Of a DNA stretch of 64,000 bases, positions 3,642-17,553 are shown piece after piece. The first letter of the stretch is position 1; every line of letters begins with the position of its first letter. Origin of the DNA: Geobacter sp. (lineage in GTDB: Bacteria; Desulfobacterota; Desulfuromonadia; Geobacterales; DSM-12255). Both the position numbers and the translations under genes were made by a program. The notes under the pieces were generated by a model. The model was not told where the DNA came from and did no database searches. It saw only the letters and a program-made list of their open reading frames with translations. Location: the NCBI GenBank assembly GCA_009684525.1, contig WKKR01000008.1, positions 23,386 to 87,385 of the forward strand, written 5' to 3'.

Positions 3642-3682
3642 CTTCAGACGGTCACGCCATTTTACCCCGGTTTCAGGTGGGC

Positions 3683-3778
3683 CATTAGGCACTACCAACG
3701 GTGTACCGCAGGTGCCCGGCAAAATCAAGTTGCAAATCAACTGGTTATGGCATCTATAGTGTAAAGAAATTTTACACT
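3683..3778 (-). promoter_or_regulatory. Conserved ~95-bp module, copy A (palindrome + IHF consensus + sigma70-like promoter)
   Basis: About 90% identical (10 mismatches in 97 nt) to 12695-12791; AGTGTAAA-N5-TTTACACT at 3758-3778; WATCAANNNNTTR at 3735-3747; TTGATT-N17-TACACC on the minus strand. Confidence 0.8.
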
Positions 3779-3855
3779 CTGCCTGCTGCCCTGCCCGAAT
3801 CGAAACAGGGGAAGCCGGCGGAGCGCTGCCGGGCAACTCAGTCTTTCCTCGTTTC

Positions 3856-5324: not shown

Positions 5325-5438
5325 AGCATGGTACTATCATGGGTGTATCGCATCCTATCGGCTAAATCAAGAGTTAAATCAATTGGTTATGTGGTTTTTC
5401 GTGTAAAGGAATTTTACACGTGTAAAGGAATTTTACAC
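5325..5438 (-). promoter_or_regulatory. Conserved module, copy B, with a tandem duplication of the 19-bp palindrome
   Basis: GTGTAAAGGAATTTTACAC at both 5401-5419 and 5420-5438; IHF consensus 5377-5389; TTGATT-N17-TACACC on the minus strand. Confidence 0.75.
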
Positions 5439-10632: not shown

Positions 10633-12588
10633 TCAGCTCGCTTCTGTCAAGGCTGCAAGCTCTTCCCACTCGGCATAAAGTGCCGCCAGCCGGGCCTCGA
10701 TGGCAGCATGCTCGCTGCCCGCCTGCTGCAGGGCCGCATAGTCGGCGGCCATCTCCGGGGCTGCCAGCCGGGCCTCCACGTCCTGCAGCGCCTTTTCCTC
10801 CTGGCCGATGGCGGCCTCCAGCTCGCCGATCCGTTTGGTCCGCGCCCGCTCTAACTTCTGGCGCTGCTTCTCCTCCTCCCGCTGACGGAGGCGATCCTCC
10901 TTGGAGAGCTCGTAGCTCGGCAGCGCGGCCTCGGCTGCGCCCGCCGTTGCAACGGGACCGCTTGCCCGCACCTCGGCAGAGGTCTGCTGGCCGGACTTCT
11001 TCGCCAGGAAGTATTCGTAATCGCCCGGATAGGAAGTGAGTCCGCCCCCTTCCACCTCCACCACCCTGGTGGCAAGCCCGTCGATGAAGTAACGGTCGTG
11101 GGAAACGAAGACCAGCGTGCCCGGAAAGGAGCGGAGCGCCTCCAGCAGCACCTCCTTGCTGAACAGGTCCAGGTGGTTGGTCGGCTCGTCCATCAGGAGC
11201 AGGTTGGCCGGCTTGAGCAGCATCCGCGCCAGGGCCAGCCGGTTCTTCTCCCCGCCGGAGAGGACGCCGACCTTCTTATTGATGTCGTCGCCGGAAAAGA
11301 GGAAGGCGCCCAGAATATCCCGCAGCTGTGGCACCATGTCGTACGGGGCGGCAGAGAGCAACTCCTCGTAGGCGCTTTTGGTCTGGTCCATGACCTGGGC
11401 CTGGTCCTGGGCGAAATAGTCGAGCGACACGTTGTGGCCGATCCGCCGCTCCCCTGCCTGGTGCGGTTCGCCGTTCAGGATCCGCATGAGCGTCGACTTG
11501 CCGGCGCCGTTATGCCCCACCAGGGCGATCCGCTCGCCGCTCTCGATGGTCAGGTCGACGTGGTCCAGCACGGTCTTCTCGCCGTAGCGCTTGACGATGC
11601 CGGCAAGCTCCATCACGATCCGGCCGCTCTTGGGCGGGGCCGGGAAACGGAAGCGGATACGTTTACGTTCCGGCGGCAGCACGATCCGCTCCACCTTCTC
11701 CAGCTGCTTGATTCGCGACTGCACCAGCGACGCCTTGTTGGCGTTGTAGCGGAAGCGGCGGATGAAATCCTCCATCGCCTCCACCTCCTCGTCCTGGCGC
11801 CGCTTTGCCTCGCGCAGCGCCGTCACCCGCTCCTCCCGCTGCACGAGATAATTGCTGTAGGAGCAGTGGTAATCGGTGAGGGTATGGTTCCAGACCTCGG
11901 TGATCCGGTGGCAGACCTGGTCGAGGAAGAAGCGGTCGTGGGAGACCAGGATCACCGAATAGGGGTAGCTGCAGAGGTACTCCTCCAGCCAGTTGCGCGC
12001 CTCGATGTCCAGGTGGTTGGTCGGTTCGTCCAGAAGGAGGATGTTGGGCTTCTGCAAGAGCAGCCGGGCCAGGGCGATCCGCATCTGCCAGCCGCCGGAG
12101 AAGTCCCCGCAATCCCGCTCCCAGTCCTGCCGGGAAAAGCCGAGGCCGCGCAGCACCGTCCCCACCTCCGCCTCCATGGCGTAGCCGCCGCGGATGCGGA
12201 ACTCCTCCTGGCGCTGGCCGTAGCGTTCCAGGATCGCCGCGTGCTCTGGGGCGTCGTGCGGCACGGTTGCCAGCCGCCCCTCCAGCTCTTTCAGCTCGGT
12301 CTCTATCTGCCGCAGGTCGGCCAGCGCCGACAGTGCCTCGTCGAACAGGCTTTTGCCCTGTGAGACGATCCCTTCCTGCGGCAGGTAGCCTACCGTCGCA
12401 CCCTTGGCAAGGCGGAGCTCGCCGGACGACGCCTCCACCTGGCCGGCGATGATCCGCATCAGGGTCGACTTGCCGGCGCCGTTCTCCCCCACCAGGCCGA
12501 CCCGCTCCCCCTTGGGCAGATGCCAGCAGATGGCGGTGAAAAGCGGTTTGGCGGCGAATTCCTTGGTCAGGTTGTCGAGCTGCAGCAT
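10633..12588 (-). CDS. ABC-F family ATPase
   Basis: Two ABC cassettes (GENGAGKS/GHNGAGKS, FSGGW/LSGGE, LLDEPTNHLD twice), no TM segments, C-terminal coiled coil. Confidence 0.93.
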   Translation of the reverse strand: MLQLDNLTKEFAAKPLFTAICWHLPKGERVGLVGENGAGKSTLMRIIAGQVEASSGELRLAKGATVGYLPQEGIVSQGKSLFDEALSALADLRQIETELKELEGRLATVPHDAPEHAAILERYGQRQEEFRIRGGYAMEAEVGTVLRGLGFSRQDWERDCGDFSGGWQMRIALARLLLQKPNILLLDEPTNHLDIEARNWLEEYLCSYPYSVILVSHDRFFLDQVCHRITEVWNHTLTDYHCSYSNYLVQREERVTALREAKRRQDEEVEAMEDFIRRFRYNANKASLVQSRIKQLEKVERIVLPPERKRIRFRFPAPPKSGRIVMELAGIVKRYGEKTVLDHVDLTIESGERIALVGHNGAGKSTLMRILNGEPHQAGERRIGHNVSLDYFAQDQAQVMDQTKSAYEELLSAAPYDMVPQLRDILGAFLFSGDDINKKVGVLSGGEKNRLALARMLLKPANLLLMDEPTNHLDLFSKEVLLEALRSFPGTLVFVSHDRYFIDGLATRVVEVEGGGLTSYPGDYEYFLAKKSGQQTSAEVRASGPVATAGAAEAALPSYELSKEDRLRQREEEKQRQKLERARTKRIGELEAAIGQEEKALQDVEARLAAPEMAADYAALQQAGSEHAAIEARLAALYAEWEELAALTEAS

Positions 12589-12694
12589 GCAATACCTCGT
12601 TGGGGATCGATAACCGCTCTATTTAGCGGCAATCAGCGTCGGATGTCAATGTTGCAGCCGCTGGACCGGCTGCTGCGGGCCGCTCAGCAGGGTA

Positions 12695-12791
12695 AGTGTA
12701 AAATTTCTTTACACTAAAAATGTTATAACCAGTTGATATGCAACTTGATTTTGCCGGGTGTCTGCGGTACACCCTTGGTAGTGCCCAATGG
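12695..12791 (+). promoter_or_regulatory. Conserved module, copy C; candidate cassette-array promoter
   Basis: AGTGTAAA-ATTTC-TTTACACT 12695-12715; IHF consensus (minus) 12726-12738; -35 TTGATT 12745-12750, 17 bp, -10 TACACC 12768-12773. Confidence 0.8.
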
Positions 12792-12800
12792 AGGATGTGC

Positions 12801-13154
12801 ATGTTGAAGGATATGAAGGCGTATGCCCATTTAAAGCCGGGTCAGGACGGGACCAAGCGGCTGGTGGAGCAATACGGCGATGCCTTGCTCTGCGTCCGTT
12901 ACCGCTTTGATGAAGTGCGCGGCGTGAAGCTGAAGACGGTTGAGATCATCGTCGACGAAAAGCCGCTGCAGTCCCCGCGCTTCAAGCATGATGACCTGGT
13001 GCCGGTTCGCGTTGCTTATGACGAGGTGGAGCTGCGGCAGCAGTTGCGCGCCATGCGGGGGCGATGGGATGCGGAAAGGAAGTTGTGGTACGTCCGATAT
13101 GGATTGATCCGCGGTACTCCGCTGGAAGAGCGGCTTGCGGAGCTGTACGAATAG
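12801..13154 (+). CDS. Hypothetical 117-aa protein (KPGQxGTKRL..QYG..L.CVRYR motif; C-terminal RWDAERKLWYV resembling DUF5710)
   Basis: GGAGG RBS at 12790; host-like GC; domain resemblance is from recall only. Confidence 0.8.
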   Translation: MLKDMKAYAHLKPGQDGTKRLVEQYGDALLCVRYRFDEVRGVKLKTVEIIVDEKPLQSPRFKHDDLVPVRVAYDEVELRQQLRAMRGRWDAERKLWYVRYGLIRGTPLEERLAELYE

Positions 13155-13161
13155 CTGCGAG

Positions 13162-13240
13162 ATTACCGATATAAGTAACTTAGAAGATTACTTATATCGA
13201 TAATAAATTACCTATATTGGTAATAAATTACTTATATCGT
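13162..13240. repeat. Array of ~20-bp AT-rich repeats (three direct, one inverted) upstream of the attI-like core
   Basis: ATTACTTATATCGATAATAA 13187, ATTACCTATATTGGTAATAA 13207, ATTACTTATATCG 13227; inverted copy ATTACCGATATAAGTAA 13162. Confidence 0.85.
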
Positions 13241-13247
13241 GAAACTT

Positions 13248-13265
13248 GCTAATAACTAGTTGTCC
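13248..13265 (+). other. attI-like recombination core (GCTAATAACTA/GTTGTCC)
   Basis: TAAC...GTT simple-site layout; GTTGTCCG is complementary (7/8) to the R'' CGGCCAAC of the first attC. Confidence 0.65.
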
Positions 13266-13273
13266 GAGGAAAT

Positions 13274-13834
13274 ATGAATAGAGAAGATTTTCAGGATCGG
13301 TTTTCGAGTGCGACAGATTCGGCTGTCTCTTTTGCGCGGAGCTATGTCTTAAACGAGTTGCCAAACCAAAGAGTATTCCTGATTTTTCCAAATCAGTCCT
13401 TCGATGGCAATCCCCTTGAAGCTGACGAGGAAACCTATCCGAGTGACACTCAAATCGATGACAAACCAATTGTTTTTGCGACGGCTGAGGCCGTCGTTGA
13501 TTATCTCTGGAGAGACTTCAAGGTTCCAGAGTGGATCGACGTAAGTGTTGGAGGAGCAGACGGTGAGCGCACGTATATTCACCTTCTATGCTGTGGCCGA
13601 TTTACTGCAACTAGCGAGTTACTGTACCACCGCGATGGAGGCGTTTCCCCATTTTCTGTCAAGAGCCCAATCCTTCCACCAGGCTACGATGACGCTGCAG
13701 AAGCTGATACTCAGAAATTCGATGTAAATTGGCGAGAAAAGGCAAAGAAGGAATTTCAAGAAAATCAAAAAAACGAGGGCGGATTGCTTCATCGTCTACT
13801 GCACTCGACGCAATCATTATTCCGAAGCCAGTGA
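13274..13834 (+). CDS. Cassette 1 hypothetical protein (VPEWIDVSV...LLCCGRF motif)
   Basis: 186-aa ORF with GAGG RBS immediately after the GTT core; low GC. Confidence 0.8.
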   Translation: MNREDFQDRFSSATDSAVSFARSYVLNELPNQRVFLIFPNQSFDGNPLEADEETYPSDTQIDDKPIVFATAEAVVDYLWRDFKVPEWIDVSVGGADGERTYIHLLCCGRFTATSELLYHRDGGVSPFSVKSPILPPGYDDAAEADTQKFDVNWREKAKKEFQENQKNEGGLLHRLLHSTQSLFRSQ

Positions 13835-13846
13835 ATGAGAAGAAAA

Positions 13847-13901
13847 CGGCCAACCATCGGCAAGACCCGCCGAGGGCGGGTCAGCCTCACCACCGTTATG
13901 C
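13847..13901 (+). other. attC site 1
   Basis: CGGCCAAC ... GGC-AA-GACCCGCC-GAG-GGCGGGTC-A-GCC hairpin ... GTTATGC. Confidence 0.75.
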
Positions 13902-13926
13902 AGCAAGAAAATTAAGGGATAATCTA

Positions 13927-14367
13927 ATGACTGAACTCGACGAAAAATATGAATGCCTCAGAAAAACTTACGCAGACGGCAATCTGGATAAATTGTCTAT
14001 AGAACAGTTGAAAGATTATCACTCAATGGTAATGACACACGGAAACCGAAACCAACTAAACCAAGACACCTATAATCATTTAATCAATGAAATTAGCAAC
14101 ATAAAAAGACATAAGGAAACCCAAGAGAAACTTAAAGAACTTAAAAAGCCGCATTGGACAGTAAACCCTACTTTTTGGGTCAGTCTTATTGCAATGACAG
14201 CCGCCTGTATTGCAGCGTTTTTCACTGTTTTCCCTCGATCTTCTCAACCCGCAAACGGAGGTCAGAAATTTCTTGGGACAAAACAGACCGTTCAAAGTGT
14301 TGCCGCCGATTTACAACAGCAGTTATCAAGTTCACAACAAGTATCAAACAAAGAAAAGCAAAAGTAG
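13927..14367 (+). CDS. Cassette 2 ORF a: hypothetical protein with one TM helix and a Q/S-rich tail
   Basis: ATG at 13927 after AAGGGA; KPHWTVNPTFWVSLIAMTAACIAAFF TM segment; very AT-rich. Confidence 0.65.
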   Translation: MTELDEKYECLRKTYADGNLDKLSIEQLKDYHSMVMTHGNRNQLNQDTYNHLINEISNIKRHKETQEKLKELKKPHWTVNPTFWVSLIAMTAACIAAFFTVFPRSSQPANGGQKFLGTKQTVQSVAADLQQQLSSSQQVSNKEKQK

Positions 14368-14404
14368 CAATAGCATAGTGTCTGTCTGAAGATGAAAATT
14401 TCAT
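14222..14404 (-). CDS. Possible antisense 60-aa TM/coiled-coil peptide
   Basis: AGGAGG 4 nt before ATG; YAIATFAFLCLILVVNLITAVV hydrophobic stretch; overlaps the 3' tail of 13927-14367. Confidence 0.35.
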   Translation of the reverse strand: MKFSSSDRHYAIATFAFLCLILVVNLITAVVNRRQHFERSVLSQEISDLRLRVEKIEGKQ

Positions 14405-14454
14405 AAAACCTCCTACATGTCCTAACAAAATTCGATCCTAGAAACGAGGTAAAC

Positions 14455-14871
14455 ATGAAAAACCATCAGCTATTAATTGCCATTTCGTCATTTCTTGTGC
14501 TGACTATTGCGACACCTCTTCTAGCGGCTGACGGATGGTATTTGCTTGTCCCACCGAGAAGTAAGTACGATAAAAATGCCGAATACTTGAGCGGATACAA
14601 AATATTAGACAGTAAACCGTTATCTCAGTGGCATCAGCAGGGCGCGTATGACTCTGCTTCTGAATGCGAAGATGTGAAACATAATCTGACCATGATTGAG
14701 CAAAATACTTATTCCAAGACATCTGAAAATTATATTGACGCAGTTCGTTCCGAGAAATCGAAAGCTGTGTTGGAGTTCCAACGCGCCAGTGTAGAGGCAT
14801 TAAACGCCAATGTTTTTGCTTTTATGGCAAGTCGTTGCATTAAAAGTAGCGACCCAAGATTAAAACAGTAG
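14455..14871 (+). CDS. Cassette 2 ORF b: secreted hypothetical protein
   Basis: GAGG RBS; signal peptide ending LLA-AD; two Cys. Confidence 0.75.
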   Translation: MKNHQLLIAISSFLVLTIATPLLAADGWYLLVPPRSKYDKNAEYLSGYKILDSKPLSQWHQQGAYDSASECEDVKHNLTMIEQNTYSKTSENYIDAVRSEKSKAVLEFQRASVEALNANVFAFMASRCIKSSDPRLKQ

Positions 14872-14880
14872 ACCGGGATG

Positions 14881-14953
14881 CCATCCAGAAAGATGCACTC
14901 AGTCGGACGCGGAAGAAGCCCCGCGCCGCTGGTGATTTCCCGGCCCGTTGTGT
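14881..14953 (+). other. attC site 2 (degenerate R'' box)
   Basis: AT-G-CAC-T-CAG-T-CGG-A-CGCGG pairs with CCGCG-CCG-CTG-GTG-AT with unpaired bases; ends CCCGGCCCGTTGTG identical to attC 3; no AAC at R''. Confidence 0.7.
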
Positions 14954-14969
14954 GAATAAAAGGAAAACT

Positions 14970-15467
14970 ATGCCCAAAACTAAGCATGACGACATAGTCG
15001 ATTATTGGTCGGAGCACCAAGATGAATGCGGATTGAGCGTCGATTGGGCAGAAGCGCATGAGCGTTGTTGGAGATGCGGCTATAAAAGCAAGCTCGAACG
15101 TTGCCACATTATTCCAGATTCAATGGCTGGGCCTGATGAACCGTCAAATCTTGTGCTCCTTTGTCATCGCTGCCATAGAGAAGCACCAAACGTGAAGGAC
15201 CCAAGATTCATGTGGATTTGGATTCGTGCATACGGAACGTCATTTTACGATACGTTCTGGACTCTCCGCGGAATGGAAGAATTTGAAAAGATGTTCAAAC
15301 GCAAGCCATTTGCCGAATTTGAAGCAAGAAATATTTCACAGGAAGTAATCAGAGCGGCAATGTTTGAAGCAATGCAGTCAGCAACTATTCATTTTGGCGA
15401 GGGGAGGATGAATCCTTCCACAATTGCTTGCGTTCTTTATCAAGTTGAAGAAAAGCTCCTCAAATAA
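14970..15467 (+). CDS. Cassette 3: HNH endonuclease
   Basis: CWRCG...ERCHIIP...NLVLLCHRCH zinc-finger HNH motif; AAGGA RBS. Confidence 0.85.
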   Translation: MPKTKHDDIVDYWSEHQDECGLSVDWAEAHERCWRCGYKSKLERCHIIPDSMAGPDEPSNLVLLCHRCHREAPNVKDPRFMWIWIRAYGTSFYDTFWTLRGMEEFEKMFKRKPFAEFEARNISQEVIRAAMFEAMQSATIHFGEGRMNPSTIACVLYQVEEKLLK

Positions 15468-15468
15468 G

Positions 15469-15543
15469 CACACAACCAGGCCCTTGGACGCCGACCGGGG
15501 CTGAGAAGCGCCCCGGTGCGGGTCATGGCCCGGCCCGTTGTGC
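15469..15543 (+). other. attC site 3
   Basis: R'' CACACAAC is the exact reverse complement of the cassette start GTTGTGTG (14947-14954); inner stem ACCGGGGC/GCCCCGGT; ends GTTGTGC. Confidence 0.85.
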
Positions 15544-15557
15544 TTAGAAAGTGAAAT

Positions 15558-16028
15558 ATGACTCCAATTCAAGAGGCAATTACCGGCAAAGAAGACCTGG
15601 GGCAGTTGAATTCTCCATTCCTTGCACTGGCCCAGTTTTATCGCGCCTTCAATGCACGCGATATGGATATGATGTCCGAGAATTGGGCTCAGTCGGACGA
15701 CATCTCCATGGATAACCCGCTTGGCGGCATCAAACGCGGCTGGGATGAGATACGAGCCGTCTATGAACGTATTTTTCATGGAGCTGCAGAAGTCTCTGTG
15801 GAGTATTATGATTACACCATCCACGAGACAGCTGAGATGTTTTATGCCGTGGGAAGGGAGCGGGGGTATTTTCGCCTGGGCGGCACTGAGATTAAACTCG
15901 CCATTCGTACCAGCCGTATTTTCAGAAAAGCGGAAGGTCGCTGGCGGCAGGTACACCATCATGGCTCAATCGAAGACCCGCATCTGTTGGCACACTATCA
16001 ATCCGCCGTAATGGGCAGTACATCGTAA
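15558..16028 (+). CDS. Cassette 4: SnoaL-like / NTF2-fold protein
   Basis: FYRAFNARDMDMM..NW, NPLGGIKRGWDEI, IRTSRIF....G.WRQVHHHGS. Confidence 0.85.
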   Translation: MTPIQEAITGKEDLGQLNSPFLALAQFYRAFNARDMDMMSENWAQSDDISMDNPLGGIKRGWDEIRAVYERIFHGAAEVSVEYYDYTIHETAEMFYAVGRERGYFRLGGTEIKLAIRTSRIFRKAEGRWRQVHHHGSIEDPHLLAHYQSAVMGSTS

Positions 16029-16106
16029 CTCGCCTTACCATCGGGTGGCGCGGAAATTCCATACTACCTCAAGTCAAAAGCCCCAGACTGAAAGCGAACT
16101 ATCCGG

Positions 16107-17036
16107 ATGAACATAACCAACCTCCTGATCCATCTGCACCACAACGTCGATGCCTTTTCCTTCAAGCAGCGCCACCTGGACCAGCTCCGCGTAGCGCTCC
16201 CCGATACCCGGATCACCGTGGCCAGCGACAATCGCGATTTCATGGCCCGCCTTCCCGATGCCGATGCCGTCATCGCCTGGCTATTCAAGGCGGAATGGTA
16301 CGACGAGGCCCGGAAACTGAAGGTGGTGTTCACCCCTGCTGCCGGTCGCGACTGGGTTGACGGAGACCCCTCCGGCAGGGTGGCGACGCGCCACGGCAGC
16401 TTCCACGGCCGCATCATGCGTGAAAGCCTCCTGTCGATGATGCTCTACTTCAACCGCCGCGTCGGCATGTCGCTTGACGACCAGCGGAACAGGCACTGGG
16501 GCCGGCTGGACTACAGCTCGTGCGTGGCGCTCTTCAGCCAGCAGGTGCTCCTGGTCGGCTACGGTTCGCTGGGCCGGTCGATGGCGGAGCTGCTGCGGGC
16601 GTTCGGGGCCGGGGTGACGGGGGTCAGGCGCAGCATGATCGGGTCCGGCGCCGATCCCGTCGTCGAGCGGGTCGTCCCGTTCGACCGGCTGGAGGAGGAG
16701 CTGCCCCATGCCGATCACGTCGTGCTGCTCCTGCCGGGCGATGCGACGACCGACGGGATCTTCACGGCGCGGCATTTCAGCGCCATGAAGCCGGGGGCCT
16801 GCCTCTACAACCTGGGCCGGGGAAACTGCTACCGGGAGGAGGACCTGCTGCATGCCCTGCAACAGGGACCATTGGCCGGCGCAGGCCTGGATGTGTTCGC
16901 CGAAGAGCCGCTGCCGCCCGAATCGCCGCTCTGGAGCCAGCCGAACGTGCTGATCACACCGCACTCCAGTGCCATCAGCCGCGAATATGTCGATCTCTCC
17001 ATCGAGGAGATGATCGCTGCCCTGCGGGAGATGTGA
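16107..17036 (+). CDS. D-2-hydroxyacid dehydrogenase (NAD(P)-dependent)
   Basis: GYGSLG Rossmann motif, NLGRG, GLDVFAEEPLP, ITPHSS. Confidence 0.9.
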   Translation: MNITNLLIHLHHNVDAFSFKQRHLDQLRVALPDTRITVASDNRDFMARLPDADAVIAWLFKAEWYDEARKLKVVFTPAAGRDWVDGDPSGRVATRHGSFHGRIMRESLLSMMLYFNRRVGMSLDDQRNRHWGRLDYSSCVALFSQQVLLVGYGSLGRSMAELLRAFGAGVTGVRRSMIGSGADPVVERVVPFDRLEEELPHADHVVLLLPGDATTDGIFTARHFSAMKPGACLYNLGRGNCYREEDLLHALQQGPLAGAGLDVFAEEPLPPESPLWSQPNVLITPHSSAISREYVDLSIEEMIAALREM

Positions 17037-17085
17037 TATTACGGGAATTGATGGCGATAACGCTACGCTGAAGCAGGAGGCAACC

Positions 17086-17553
17086 ATGTCCTACTGGCTG
17101 TTCAAGTCCGAACCGGGCTGCTTTTCGTTCGACGACCTGAAGAATCGCCCCGATATGACCGAGCATTGGGACGGGGTGCGCAACTACCAGGCGCGTAATT
17201 TCCTGCGCGACCGGGTGCAGCCGGGGGACCTGGTGCTGTTCTACCACAGCAATATCCCCGAGCCGGCCGTGGTGGGTCTGGCGGAGGTGGTGCGAGGAGG
17301 CTACCCCGATTTCACCGCCTTTGATCCGGCCAGCGAGCACTTCGACCCGAAGTCGTCCCCTGCCGCCCCGGTCTGGTTCATGGTCGACGTCCGGTACGTG
17401 GCGCCGCTGAAACAGCAGGTCACCCTGGAACGGATCAGGTCCAACCCGCTCCTGGCCGACATGCCGCTCGTCAGACGGAGCCGTCTCTCCATCCAGCTGG
17501 TGACGGAAGAGGAGTGGCGCATGATTCTCAGCATGGGCGGGATGGAAAGCTGA
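17086..17553 (+). CDS. EVE domain protein
   Basis: YWLFKSEP, WDGVRNYQARNFLRD, FYHSN, YFDPKS-like HFDPKS, RLSIQ. Confidence 0.93.
   Translation: MSYWLFKSEPGCFSFDDLKNRPDMTEHWDGVRNYQARNFLRDRVQPGDLVLFYHSNIPEPAVVGLAEVVRGGYPDFTAFDPASEHFDPKSSPAAPVWFMVDVRYVAPLKQQVTLERIRSNPLLADMPLVRRSRLSIQLVTEEEWRMILSMGGMES

Follow-up and report, generated by a model that had tools for sequence, protein, structure and literature searches.

The window analyzed here, a stretch of 64,000 nucleotides (64 kb) from contig WKKR01000008.1 of Geobacter sp., carries at ∼13160-16030 an AT-rich island that, together with the gene directly before it, is best explained overall as the head of an integron without an integrase. We put the probability of this explanation at about 0.85. 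The parts of the element would be the gene of a 117-residue protein, hereafter p117, four phased palindromes, an attI core, three cassettes bounded by attC sites, and a truncated fourth cassette. The island stands out by its composition (42-50% GC, compared with ∼63% in the background of the genome), and its open reading frames (ORFs), six out of six, are on the + strand, so that an earlier note made from the sequence alone was right in describing an AT-rich run of co-oriented ORFs. The p117 gene is GC-rich, unlike the AT-rich cassette part of the island. Flanked by an ABC-F ATPase gene and a D-2-hydroxyacid dehydrogenase gene, the region at 12695-16028 measures 3.3 kb.

The attI Platform and Its Relatives

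How can an attI site be recognized in a genome that has no integrase? The key is the comparison with related loci. In the family to which this Geobacter belongs, tblastn placed a homolog of p117 divergently beside the integrase gene intI, at a distance of 150-250 bp, in nine out of nine integrase loci with enough flanking sequence. A DNA search of the relatives likewise returned p117 and its repeat array in multiple copies across genomes, adjoining intI. The order of the parts is clear in genome G019: intI runs one way, and the other way there follow a promoter (TTTACA-17-TATATT), p117, five palindromes (GTGACCTATATAGGTGAC), the core TTATTAACGAGTTGAAC, and canonical attC cassettes. By this comparison, the platform of the window is homologous to the module found, in this bacterial class, next to intI and in divergent orientation. 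The 117-residue gene, which the earlier note had placed between promoter and attI, is a component of this platform.

The alignment of 27 platforms, from the stop codon of p117 onward, defines the architecture. In most of them, one unit is inverted and three are direct, each of ∼20 bp, at a spacing of 25/20/20, and some of the IntI-adjacent ones have extra units upstream. All 27 finish in the core GGTCAATAAC(G/T)A-GTT, where the similarity ends; this core occurs in IntI-adjacent as well as in IntI-less platforms. The sequence of the repeat units varies with the clade of p117, while the core is invariant. The dialects, by clade, are TTACyTATATrGGTAA, GTTTATAnATnTAGAAAC, GCATATAATATTAGATGC, and GCATCyTATATrAGATGC, and genome G020, which has two IntI genes, holds three repeat dialects, each beside a p117 variant of its own. 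The units of the window begin at 13160, 13185, 13205, and 13225, hence with the same 25/20/20 spacing; one long inverted repeat, which includes unit 2, is followed by three direct units. The core reads AATAAC-TA-G↓TT at 13251-13261 (the arrow marks the putative crossover).

Two comparisons show where the homology stops. The metagenomic contig L067 encodes a p117 that is 97% identical to that of the window, and the DNA of the two is 94% identical over 474 nt, to AATAACTAGTTG, and unrelated beyond; on L067, two further attC sites lie downstream of the one that closes its first cassette. The synonymous divergence (dS) between the two p117 genes is only 0.16, so that the turnover of the cassettes is recent relative to the divergence of the platforms. 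The other comparison is with C8, a second, truncated platform in the genome of the window itself. The two agree as far as GCTAATAAC-nA-GTT; beyond this point C8 has a different sequence, a single cassette for a 145-aa membrane protein with a perfect attC. C8 lies directly 3' of an MBL-fold gene and its terminator.

With the core kept in IntI-adjacent platforms, and with breakpoints at GTT in two independent comparisons, the attI-like core is, as judged by homology, a true attI, and the G↓TT of this attI type is evidently where cassettes were exchanged once near-identical platforms had diverged. Two points raised in the earlier note are settled here: its attI-like core belongs to the same module of p117, repeats, and AATAAC-NN-GTT that accompanies intI in the relatives, and the difference in cassette content for which it had asked is found between the near-identical platforms of the window and L067.

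Palindromes of this kind might also be read as iterons or as the ends of a transposon. This idea was rejected: there is no transposase, and the left boundary of the platform is not conserved, the sequence upstream of p117 being unrelated between loci. In three other platforms, from relatives and a metagenomic contig, an IS5-like element independently interrupts a p117 repeat unit at its central ATAT (L057, 8416-9775; L037, from ∼10330; and L049). It encodes a DDE_Tnp_1 transposase, has the terminal inverted repeats CAGGyCyTTGAAAAAC, and produces a 4-bp duplication, ATAT. By analogy with the IS1111-attC elements, this insertion sequence may be target-specific for the p117 palindromes.

The attC Sites

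The intergenic hairpins of the island were compared with covariance models built solely from attC sites of other genomes. The integron integrase profile TIGR02249 exceeds its cut-off in 8 of the 23 genomes of the family, and the sites were taken from the arrays beside those integrases. Model R1 comprises eight length-homogeneous sites from IntI-adjacent arrays only, with the canonical structure fixed manually as R-box helix, spacer, L-box helix bearing one bulged base, and loop, and the alignment shows covariation for this structure. Model R2 was rebuilt from 29 sites of the relatives, none of them from the window. In its alignment, 82.5% of the cells are paired, as against 64.7% after shuffling, and doubly changed, compensatory cells number 108 as against 47.

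Both models were run over the full 64-kb window on both strands, R1 with the filters off. In both cases the three hairpins are the top three matches, all on the - strand; for cassettes on the + strand, the bottom strand, here the - strand, is the one that recombines. With R2, attC3 scores 39.0 bits (E 2e-8), attC1 27.2 bits (E 4e-5), and attC2 24.7 bits (E 2e-4), and the next-best match in the window stays at 15.5 bits (E 0.066), all of these E-values being rough. Folded as single-stranded DNA, the three hairpins have z-scores of -2.8, -3.6, and -3.8, and none of 200 shuffles was as good; the intervals 14365-14455 and 16025-16110 gave no folding better than shuffles.

An attC site is an imperfect palindrome of ∼55-140 nt, R''(RYYYAAC)...R'(GTTRRRY); in its folded bottom strand, a spacer separates an R-box helix from an L-box helix that bears an extrahelical base. 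Both attC1 (54 nt, z -2.8) and attC3 (74 nt, z -3.8) fit this model in full, down to the one bulged base on the 3' arm. All of these features are present in attC2 too, bar the AAC of R'', and its R-box GTT/AAC pairs are absent from the R2 alignment. Sites and cassettes are also tied by the rule of circular permutation, by which the R'' of a cassette complements the start of that same cassette. In cassette 3 the agreement is 8/8, GTTGTGTG (14947-14954) being the exact reverse complement of CACACAAC (15469-15476); in cassette 1 it is 7/8, between the R'' CGGCCAAC (13847-13854) and the start GTTGTCCG (13259-13266); cassette 2, with its degenerate R'', fails. The rule also holds for C8 (GCATAAC, start GTTATGC) and for the first cassette of L067 (GTCCAAC, start GTTGGAC). 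Lastly, attC2 and attC3 have in common the string CCCGGCCCGTTGTG, at 14939-14952 and 15529-15542.

On these grounds, the hairpins are attC sites of the type found in the integrase-linked arrays of the relatives. The sequences, the coordinates, the complementarities (8/8 and 7/8), and the shared string quoted in the earlier note are all correct, and covariance models, the kind of check that it had proposed, accept the hairpins in the form of R1 and R2. Its picture of attC-bounded cassettes holds as far as the sites are genuine by the models; it does not hold in that attC2 is degenerate, the distal attC is missing, and cassette 2 contains two ORFs. A candidate for one more attC, placed between the two ORFs of cassette 2 (14242-14296), was considered and discarded, with 13.2 bits for R1, only 9.8 bits for R2 (E 2.5), and no folding in 14365-14455.

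Across the genome, R2 finds ∼18 attC sites. There are further integrase-less clusters, one of at least five sites at C5:78255-86000 (L064, 4256-12001) and two with two sites each, at C1:142550-146198 and C3:630790-633450, as well as ∼6 singleton sites. A 40-aa fragment of p117 is found at C4:2118-2237.

The Missing Integrase

The genome of the window is 100% complete, in 14 contigs. Searched in full with TIGR02249, it gave a best match of 84 bits, Xer-like and with stop codons read through, against the cut-off of 265, and tblastn with the IntI of a relative gave Xer-like matches only, with 27-29% identity. By either search, an intI or pseudo-intI elsewhere in the genome can be discarded. In the window itself, an ABC-F ATPase gene stands where the relatives have intI, as the earlier note had pointed out, and the 212-bp gap between this gene and p117 has no fragment of intI, being filled by a module specific to this genome.

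This situation is not confined to the window. Among 301 genomes of the class, p117 is present in 125 and IntI in 160, and 47 of the 125 p117-positive genomes are without IntI. Where the two genes are neighbors, in at least 28 genomes by the listed coordinates, they lie ∼500 bp apart, and the IntI is always of a long type (ORF of 450-500 aa), with an N-terminal extension of ∼158 aa that has no Pfam match (for example, L024, 5077-6492). This long IntI matches clade 15, for which Nemergut et al. 2008 (PMC2426708) noted a "gene fusion". The class also has shorter IntI genes, which score higher with TIGR02249 and do not stand beside p117.

In a maximum-likelihood tree of p117, the copy of the window falls in a clade of 15 rows (support 89/79), 11 of them without adjacent intI, four at contig edges, and none adjacent to IntI. 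This clade spans three families plus metagenomes, and its members have unrelated chromosomal contexts and upstream sequences. Within it, the ratio of nonsynonymous to synonymous divergence (dN/dS) of p117 is 0.03-0.11, with dS often >1, which denotes strong purifying selection. Since these values come from a clade in which no copy adjoins an intI, the integrase-less state is old and the gene has been maintained in it.

Other genomes display the variety of these arrangements. The complete, single-contig genome G203 has no IntI and at least four attC arrays headed by p117 in the correct orientation. In G040 and in G036, a single IntI is accompanied by a p117 and an array of its own; satellite p117 platforms occur in addition, and part of these are degraded. 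In the genus of the window, G007 records a separate and more recent loss of intI (L053, sister to the IntI-adjacent L029). A more distant case is the AT-rich metagenomic contig L073 (4236-7300), where a p117 homolog of 41% identity lies 790 bp downstream of a short, co-oriented IntI (440 bits) and is followed by four palindromes (ATTCCTAnATATAGGAAT), the core AATAATATGTTATAC, and a cassette in which the R'' of the attC is GTATAAC. Given this layout beside a short IntI, the p117 module is not tied to the long IntI, and L073 suggests an "inverted" integron with a p117-type platform.

The earlier note had imagined a satellite array serviced in trans by an integrase encoded elsewhere. In this genome such servicing is now impossible, because the genome is complete and has no IntI; for the lineage it is plausible, in view of G040 and G036, where one IntI coexists with several p117 platforms.

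The p117 Protein and Its Possible Role

What, then, is p117? The protein belongs to an uncharacterized family, with more than 1100 clusters when grouped at 90% identity and 1820 when grouped at 50%; its named members are all annotated as hypothetical. PADLOC and NCBIfam return nothing for it, and some close homologs have a precomputed match to PF18974 (DUF5710). An AlphaFold2 model computed from 35 diverse members has a mean confidence (pLDDT) of 90.9 and consists of two small alpha/beta domains. In the literature searched, no gene is described between intI and attI in Geobacter-type integrons, neither p117 nor its repeats are described, and DUF5710 appears in one unrelated paper.

We infer that p117 binds the palindromic repeats, because these covary with the clade of p117 and the core does not change, because the 25/20/20 phasing is conserved, because the gene is always immediately upstream of the repeats, and because gene and repeats persist together without any integrase. 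If so, p117 would be a sequence-specific, probably dimeric DNA-binding protein, and its dimers would occupy the four palindromes ∼two helical turns apart, on one face of the helix, beside the crossover. Most likely it would assist attI x attC integration as an accessory or architectural factor, in analogy with the direct repeats DR1 and DR2 of attI1 and with the arm-site proteins of phage lambda. Being transcribed toward the cassettes, p117 may also gate the read-through expression of the array. In the present genome the platform would be recombinationally idle, with attC2 and the distal end already decaying; the cassettes would persist as a read-through operon, and the site would stay usable if an IntI entered the cell.

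Alternative Explanations

A number of observations speak against this interpretation. The DUF5710 match of p117 (21.7 bits, residues 79-100) is below the gathering threshold of 26.5, and searches of the PDB by Foldseek and hmmsearch returned no match to p117, either in fold or in sequence. The linkage between p117 and the repeats is physical, so that their covariation could partly reflect shared descent; it could also partly reflect recognition by another factor, for example, the ∼158-aa N-terminal extension of IntI. The attC models are lineage-specific. The R'' of attC2 has GCCATCC where GCATAAC is expected, thus without the conserved AAC, and 3' of the SnoaL gene neither a hairpin nor a model match exists in 16025-16110. 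Finally, a scan of 12550-16150 for sigma-70 sites found no consensus promoter on the + strand, and thus none upstream of p117. The "promoter module" of the earlier note is real as a repeated element of ∼115 bp, and lacks a + strand sigma-70 match.

Four other explanations have to be weighed. The one that survives best, which we nevertheless regard as rather unlikely, is that p117 is only a transcription regulator of the cassette operon, a repressor or a roadblock, with the palindromes as its operators and no part in recombination. The arrangement would suit such a role: the palindromes separate the p117 gene from the cassettes, p117 comes first in the transcription unit (preceded in G019 by the promoter), and it is retained where no integrase exists. 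However, four to six phased sites exceed the need of a simple operator, and the repeats always abut the core at a fixed distance and, in the loci examined, are found only at the heads of arrays. Moreover, regulation by p117 is compatible with an additional architectural role, and the two are not exclusive.

An unlikely explanation, too, is the plain decaying remnant, in which intI was deleted from an ordinary chromosomal integron and p117 and the repeats are inert leftovers. Signs of decay do exist. Besides the want of an IntI in the genome, the defective attC2, and the last cassette without attC, C8 has already lost p117 and part of its repeats, degraded copies of p117 occur in G036 and G040, and G007 lost its intI recently and independently (L053). 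Against this stand a dN/dS of 0.03-0.11 across a clade without adjacent intI, with dS often >1, repeats that keep their 25/20/20 phasing, and the turnover of cassettes between platforms of 94% identity; nor is any fragment of intI left in the gap between ABC-F and p117.

We consider it improbable that the long IntI itself reads the repeats through its N-terminal domain, as arm-type sites in the manner of lambda Int, with p117 unrelated to them. A precedent of a kind is offered by attI1, whose accessory direct repeats DR1 and DR2 are bound by IntI1. In addition, the IntI beside p117 in this class does carry an extension without Pfam match ("gene fusion" clade, PMC2426708). Against this, the units are palindromic and arm sites are usually asymmetric; the repeats are regular in genomes without any IntI; L073 has a distant p117 homolog and four palindromes beside a short IntI without the extension; and the three repeat dialects of G020 face only two IntI genes.

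The last explanation, that the hairpins are repetitive extragenic palindromes or terminators ending in GTT by chance, can be dismissed: copies 85-95% identical are indeed dispersed in related genomes, some of them single, and the hairpins are GC-rich stems immediately 3' of stop codons, but a model from integrase-adjacent arrays picks them specifically and in one orientation, R'' complements the start of its own cassette in the window, C8, and L067, similar sites in the relatives form arrays that begin at p117/attI beside intI, and no T-run follows the hairpins on the + strand.

Relation to Known Systems

How does the element compare with other sites at which recombinases act? With attI1 of class 1 integrons it has in common a GTTRRRY box with the crossover at G↓TT, an AAC box in inverted orientation 2-3 bp upstream, and accessory repeats within ∼100 bp upstream. 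The spacing of the inverted box is AAC-AAA-GTT in attI1 and AAC-NN-GTT in the window. The two differ in that here four to six palindromic units with a 25/20/20 phasing track, in sequence, a small gene just upstream, and attI1 has no such gene. The att sites of lambda, with IHF, Xis, and Fis, resemble the platform in that phased accessory sites flank the core of a tyrosine recombinase. This is a functional analogy only: there is no relation in sequence or fold, and the partner site here is a folded single strand, attC.

The closest relatives are the sedentary chromosomal integrons of Geobacter type with a long IntI (clade 15, PMC2426708), which share p117, repeats, core, and attC type with the window and differ from it by having the integrase. 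As for formal classification, a complete integron needs an intI (TIGR02249 at 265 bits or more) beside the array, and the window has none. A group of clustered attC sites without an integron integrase (CALIN) is recognized from at least two attC within 4 kb and no intI nearby (Cury et al. 2016, PMC4889954; IntegronFinder 2.0, PMC9024848); the island has three sites within 1.7 kb in a genome without intI. Because neither IntI nor a remnant of it is present in the genome, the element is by definition a CALIN, a known kind, and it is one that retains a complete attI platform. IntI-less genomes with attC clusters proved unexpectedly common (Cury et al. 2016, PMC4889954). The likeness extends to the cassettes, mostly of unknown function. 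The definition of a CALIN, however, does not include attI, which is unknown for most integrons, whereas the window keeps a recognizable attI platform with a dedicated protein gene; and it is a member of a conserved, selected lineage of integrase-less platforms rather than a mere fragment.

Scattered integrase-less cassettes have been explained by the insertion of attC into genomic sites, attG (bioRxiv 10.1101/2022.09.11.507474), and this route may account for the singleton attC sites of the genome of the window. The array of the window differs from the products of that route, since it starts at a conserved attI platform and not at a random GTT. With respect to the literature searched, three points appear to be new: p117 with its palindrome module at attI, the place of this module beside intI throughout the class, and a long-lived, selected lineage of integrase-less platforms.

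The Locus and Its Neighborhood

The features of the locus are collected in Table 1.

Table 1. Coordinates of the Platform, Its Cassettes, and the Neighboring Features (Window Positions Unless Another Contig Is Given)
Feature	Coordinates	Strand	Description
ABC-F ATPase gene	10633-12588	-	Pfam ABC_tran (twice), ABC_tran_Xtn, ABC_tran_CTD; left flank, outside the element
Upstream module, ∼115 bp	12676-12791	+	palindrome GTGTAAA-N5-TTTACAC; promoter function putative only
p117 gene	12801-13154	+	117 aa; uncharacterized family, weak DUF5710-like C-terminus
Four palindromic units, ∼20 bp each	13160-13245	+	consensus ATTACyTATATyGrTAAT
attI core	13246-13265	+	CTTGCTAATAAC-TA-G↓TTGTCC; inferred crossover G13259/T13260
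Cassette 1	13260-13895	+	186-aa ORF 13274-13834, no family match; attC1 13848-13901, R'' GGCCAAC, R' GTTATGC
Cassette 2	13896-14947	+	two ORFs and degenerate attC2 (14881-14953)
Cassette 2, first ORF	13927-14367	+	146-aa membrane protein
Cassette 2, second ORF	14455-14871	+	138-aa secreted protein, weak DUF4756
Cassette 3	14948-15537	+	165-aa HNH endonuclease 14970-15467, Pfam HNH 34 bits; attC3 15470-15543, R'' ACACAAC, R' GTTGTGC
Terminal cassette remnant	15538-16088	+	156-aa SnoaL-like protein 15558-16028, Pfam SnoaL_3 58.6 bits; no attC
D-2-Hydroxyacid dehydrogenase gene	16107-17036	+	Pfam 2-Hacid_dh_C 150.9 bits; right flank, host-like GC, outside the array
Second, truncated platform (C8)	C8:36700-37290 (L063, 3700-4290)		partial repeats, core GCTAATAACGAGTTATGC, no p117

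The ABC-F gene of the left flank has orthologs in 23 of the 23 genomes of the family. The dehydrogenase gene on the right has no synteny with ABC-F in the relatives, and the right edge of the island lies at ∼16089, the position where homology to the dehydrogenase locus of genome G005 begins. The interval between ABC-F and RNase E (12588-17086 in the window) was compared with those of G001, G002, G003, G004, and G007. In other genera ABC-F abuts RNase E (two genera with an empty interval); in two genomes from the genus of the window, the two are separated by 1.4-2.1 kb with an EVE-domain gene; G004 has an AAA ATPase together with an EVE-domain gene; and G007 has at least 10 kb of unrelated DNA. 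The platform, the cassettes, and the dehydrogenase gene of the window are thereby placed in a variable chromosomal spot.

The ∼115-bp module upstream of p117 was not found at any other p117 locus compared. Its copy at 12676-12791 is 86% identical to one at 3682-3797 (- strand) of the window, and a third is at 5325-5438 (- strand). One more copy lies upstream on the contig, and the module is confined to this genome. In the middle copy (5325-5438) the palindrome is tandemly duplicated, and each copy heads a gene of unknown function.

Among the cassette products, the HNH protein is a member of a family of ∼170 aa that is well conserved and spans distant phyla (Gallionella, Nostoc, and Planctomycetes are among the names). 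Its C-terminal domain of ∼90 aa has an unknown function, and one homolog is beside a BrnT/BrnA pair. PADLOC and NCBIfam gave just generic HNH matches for cassette 3, and the contexts of the homologs are uninformative on the mobility of the cassette.

Significance

To our knowledge, outside classes 1-3 and Vibrio, attI sites have essentially no annotation, and arrays without an integrase pass as anonymous attC clusters. For a large environmental clade of integrons, the locus of the window provides a recognizable attI architecture: a small gene, palindromes at 25/20/20, and AAC-NN-GTT. It also provides, with p117, a candidate accessory protein of attI, and no dedicated protein of such a kind is reported for integrons in the literature searched. 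Furthermore, attI platforms can outlive a resident integrase, as in the 47 of 125 p117-positive genomes, and possibly operate without it.

These data lead to a broader proposal, which we hold tentatively and at somewhat less than an even chance: the integrons of this class, and more distant lineages that carry p117, may be distributed systems, in which p117 and its palindromes form a docking module that marks attI, recruits or licenses a compatible IntI in trans, and controls read-through. If this were true, one integrase could serve several dispersed platforms, and platforms would persist under selection without an integrase, both as expression units and as landing pads for a transient IntI. 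In any case, through this type of platform the origin and the activity of CALINs become testable questions.

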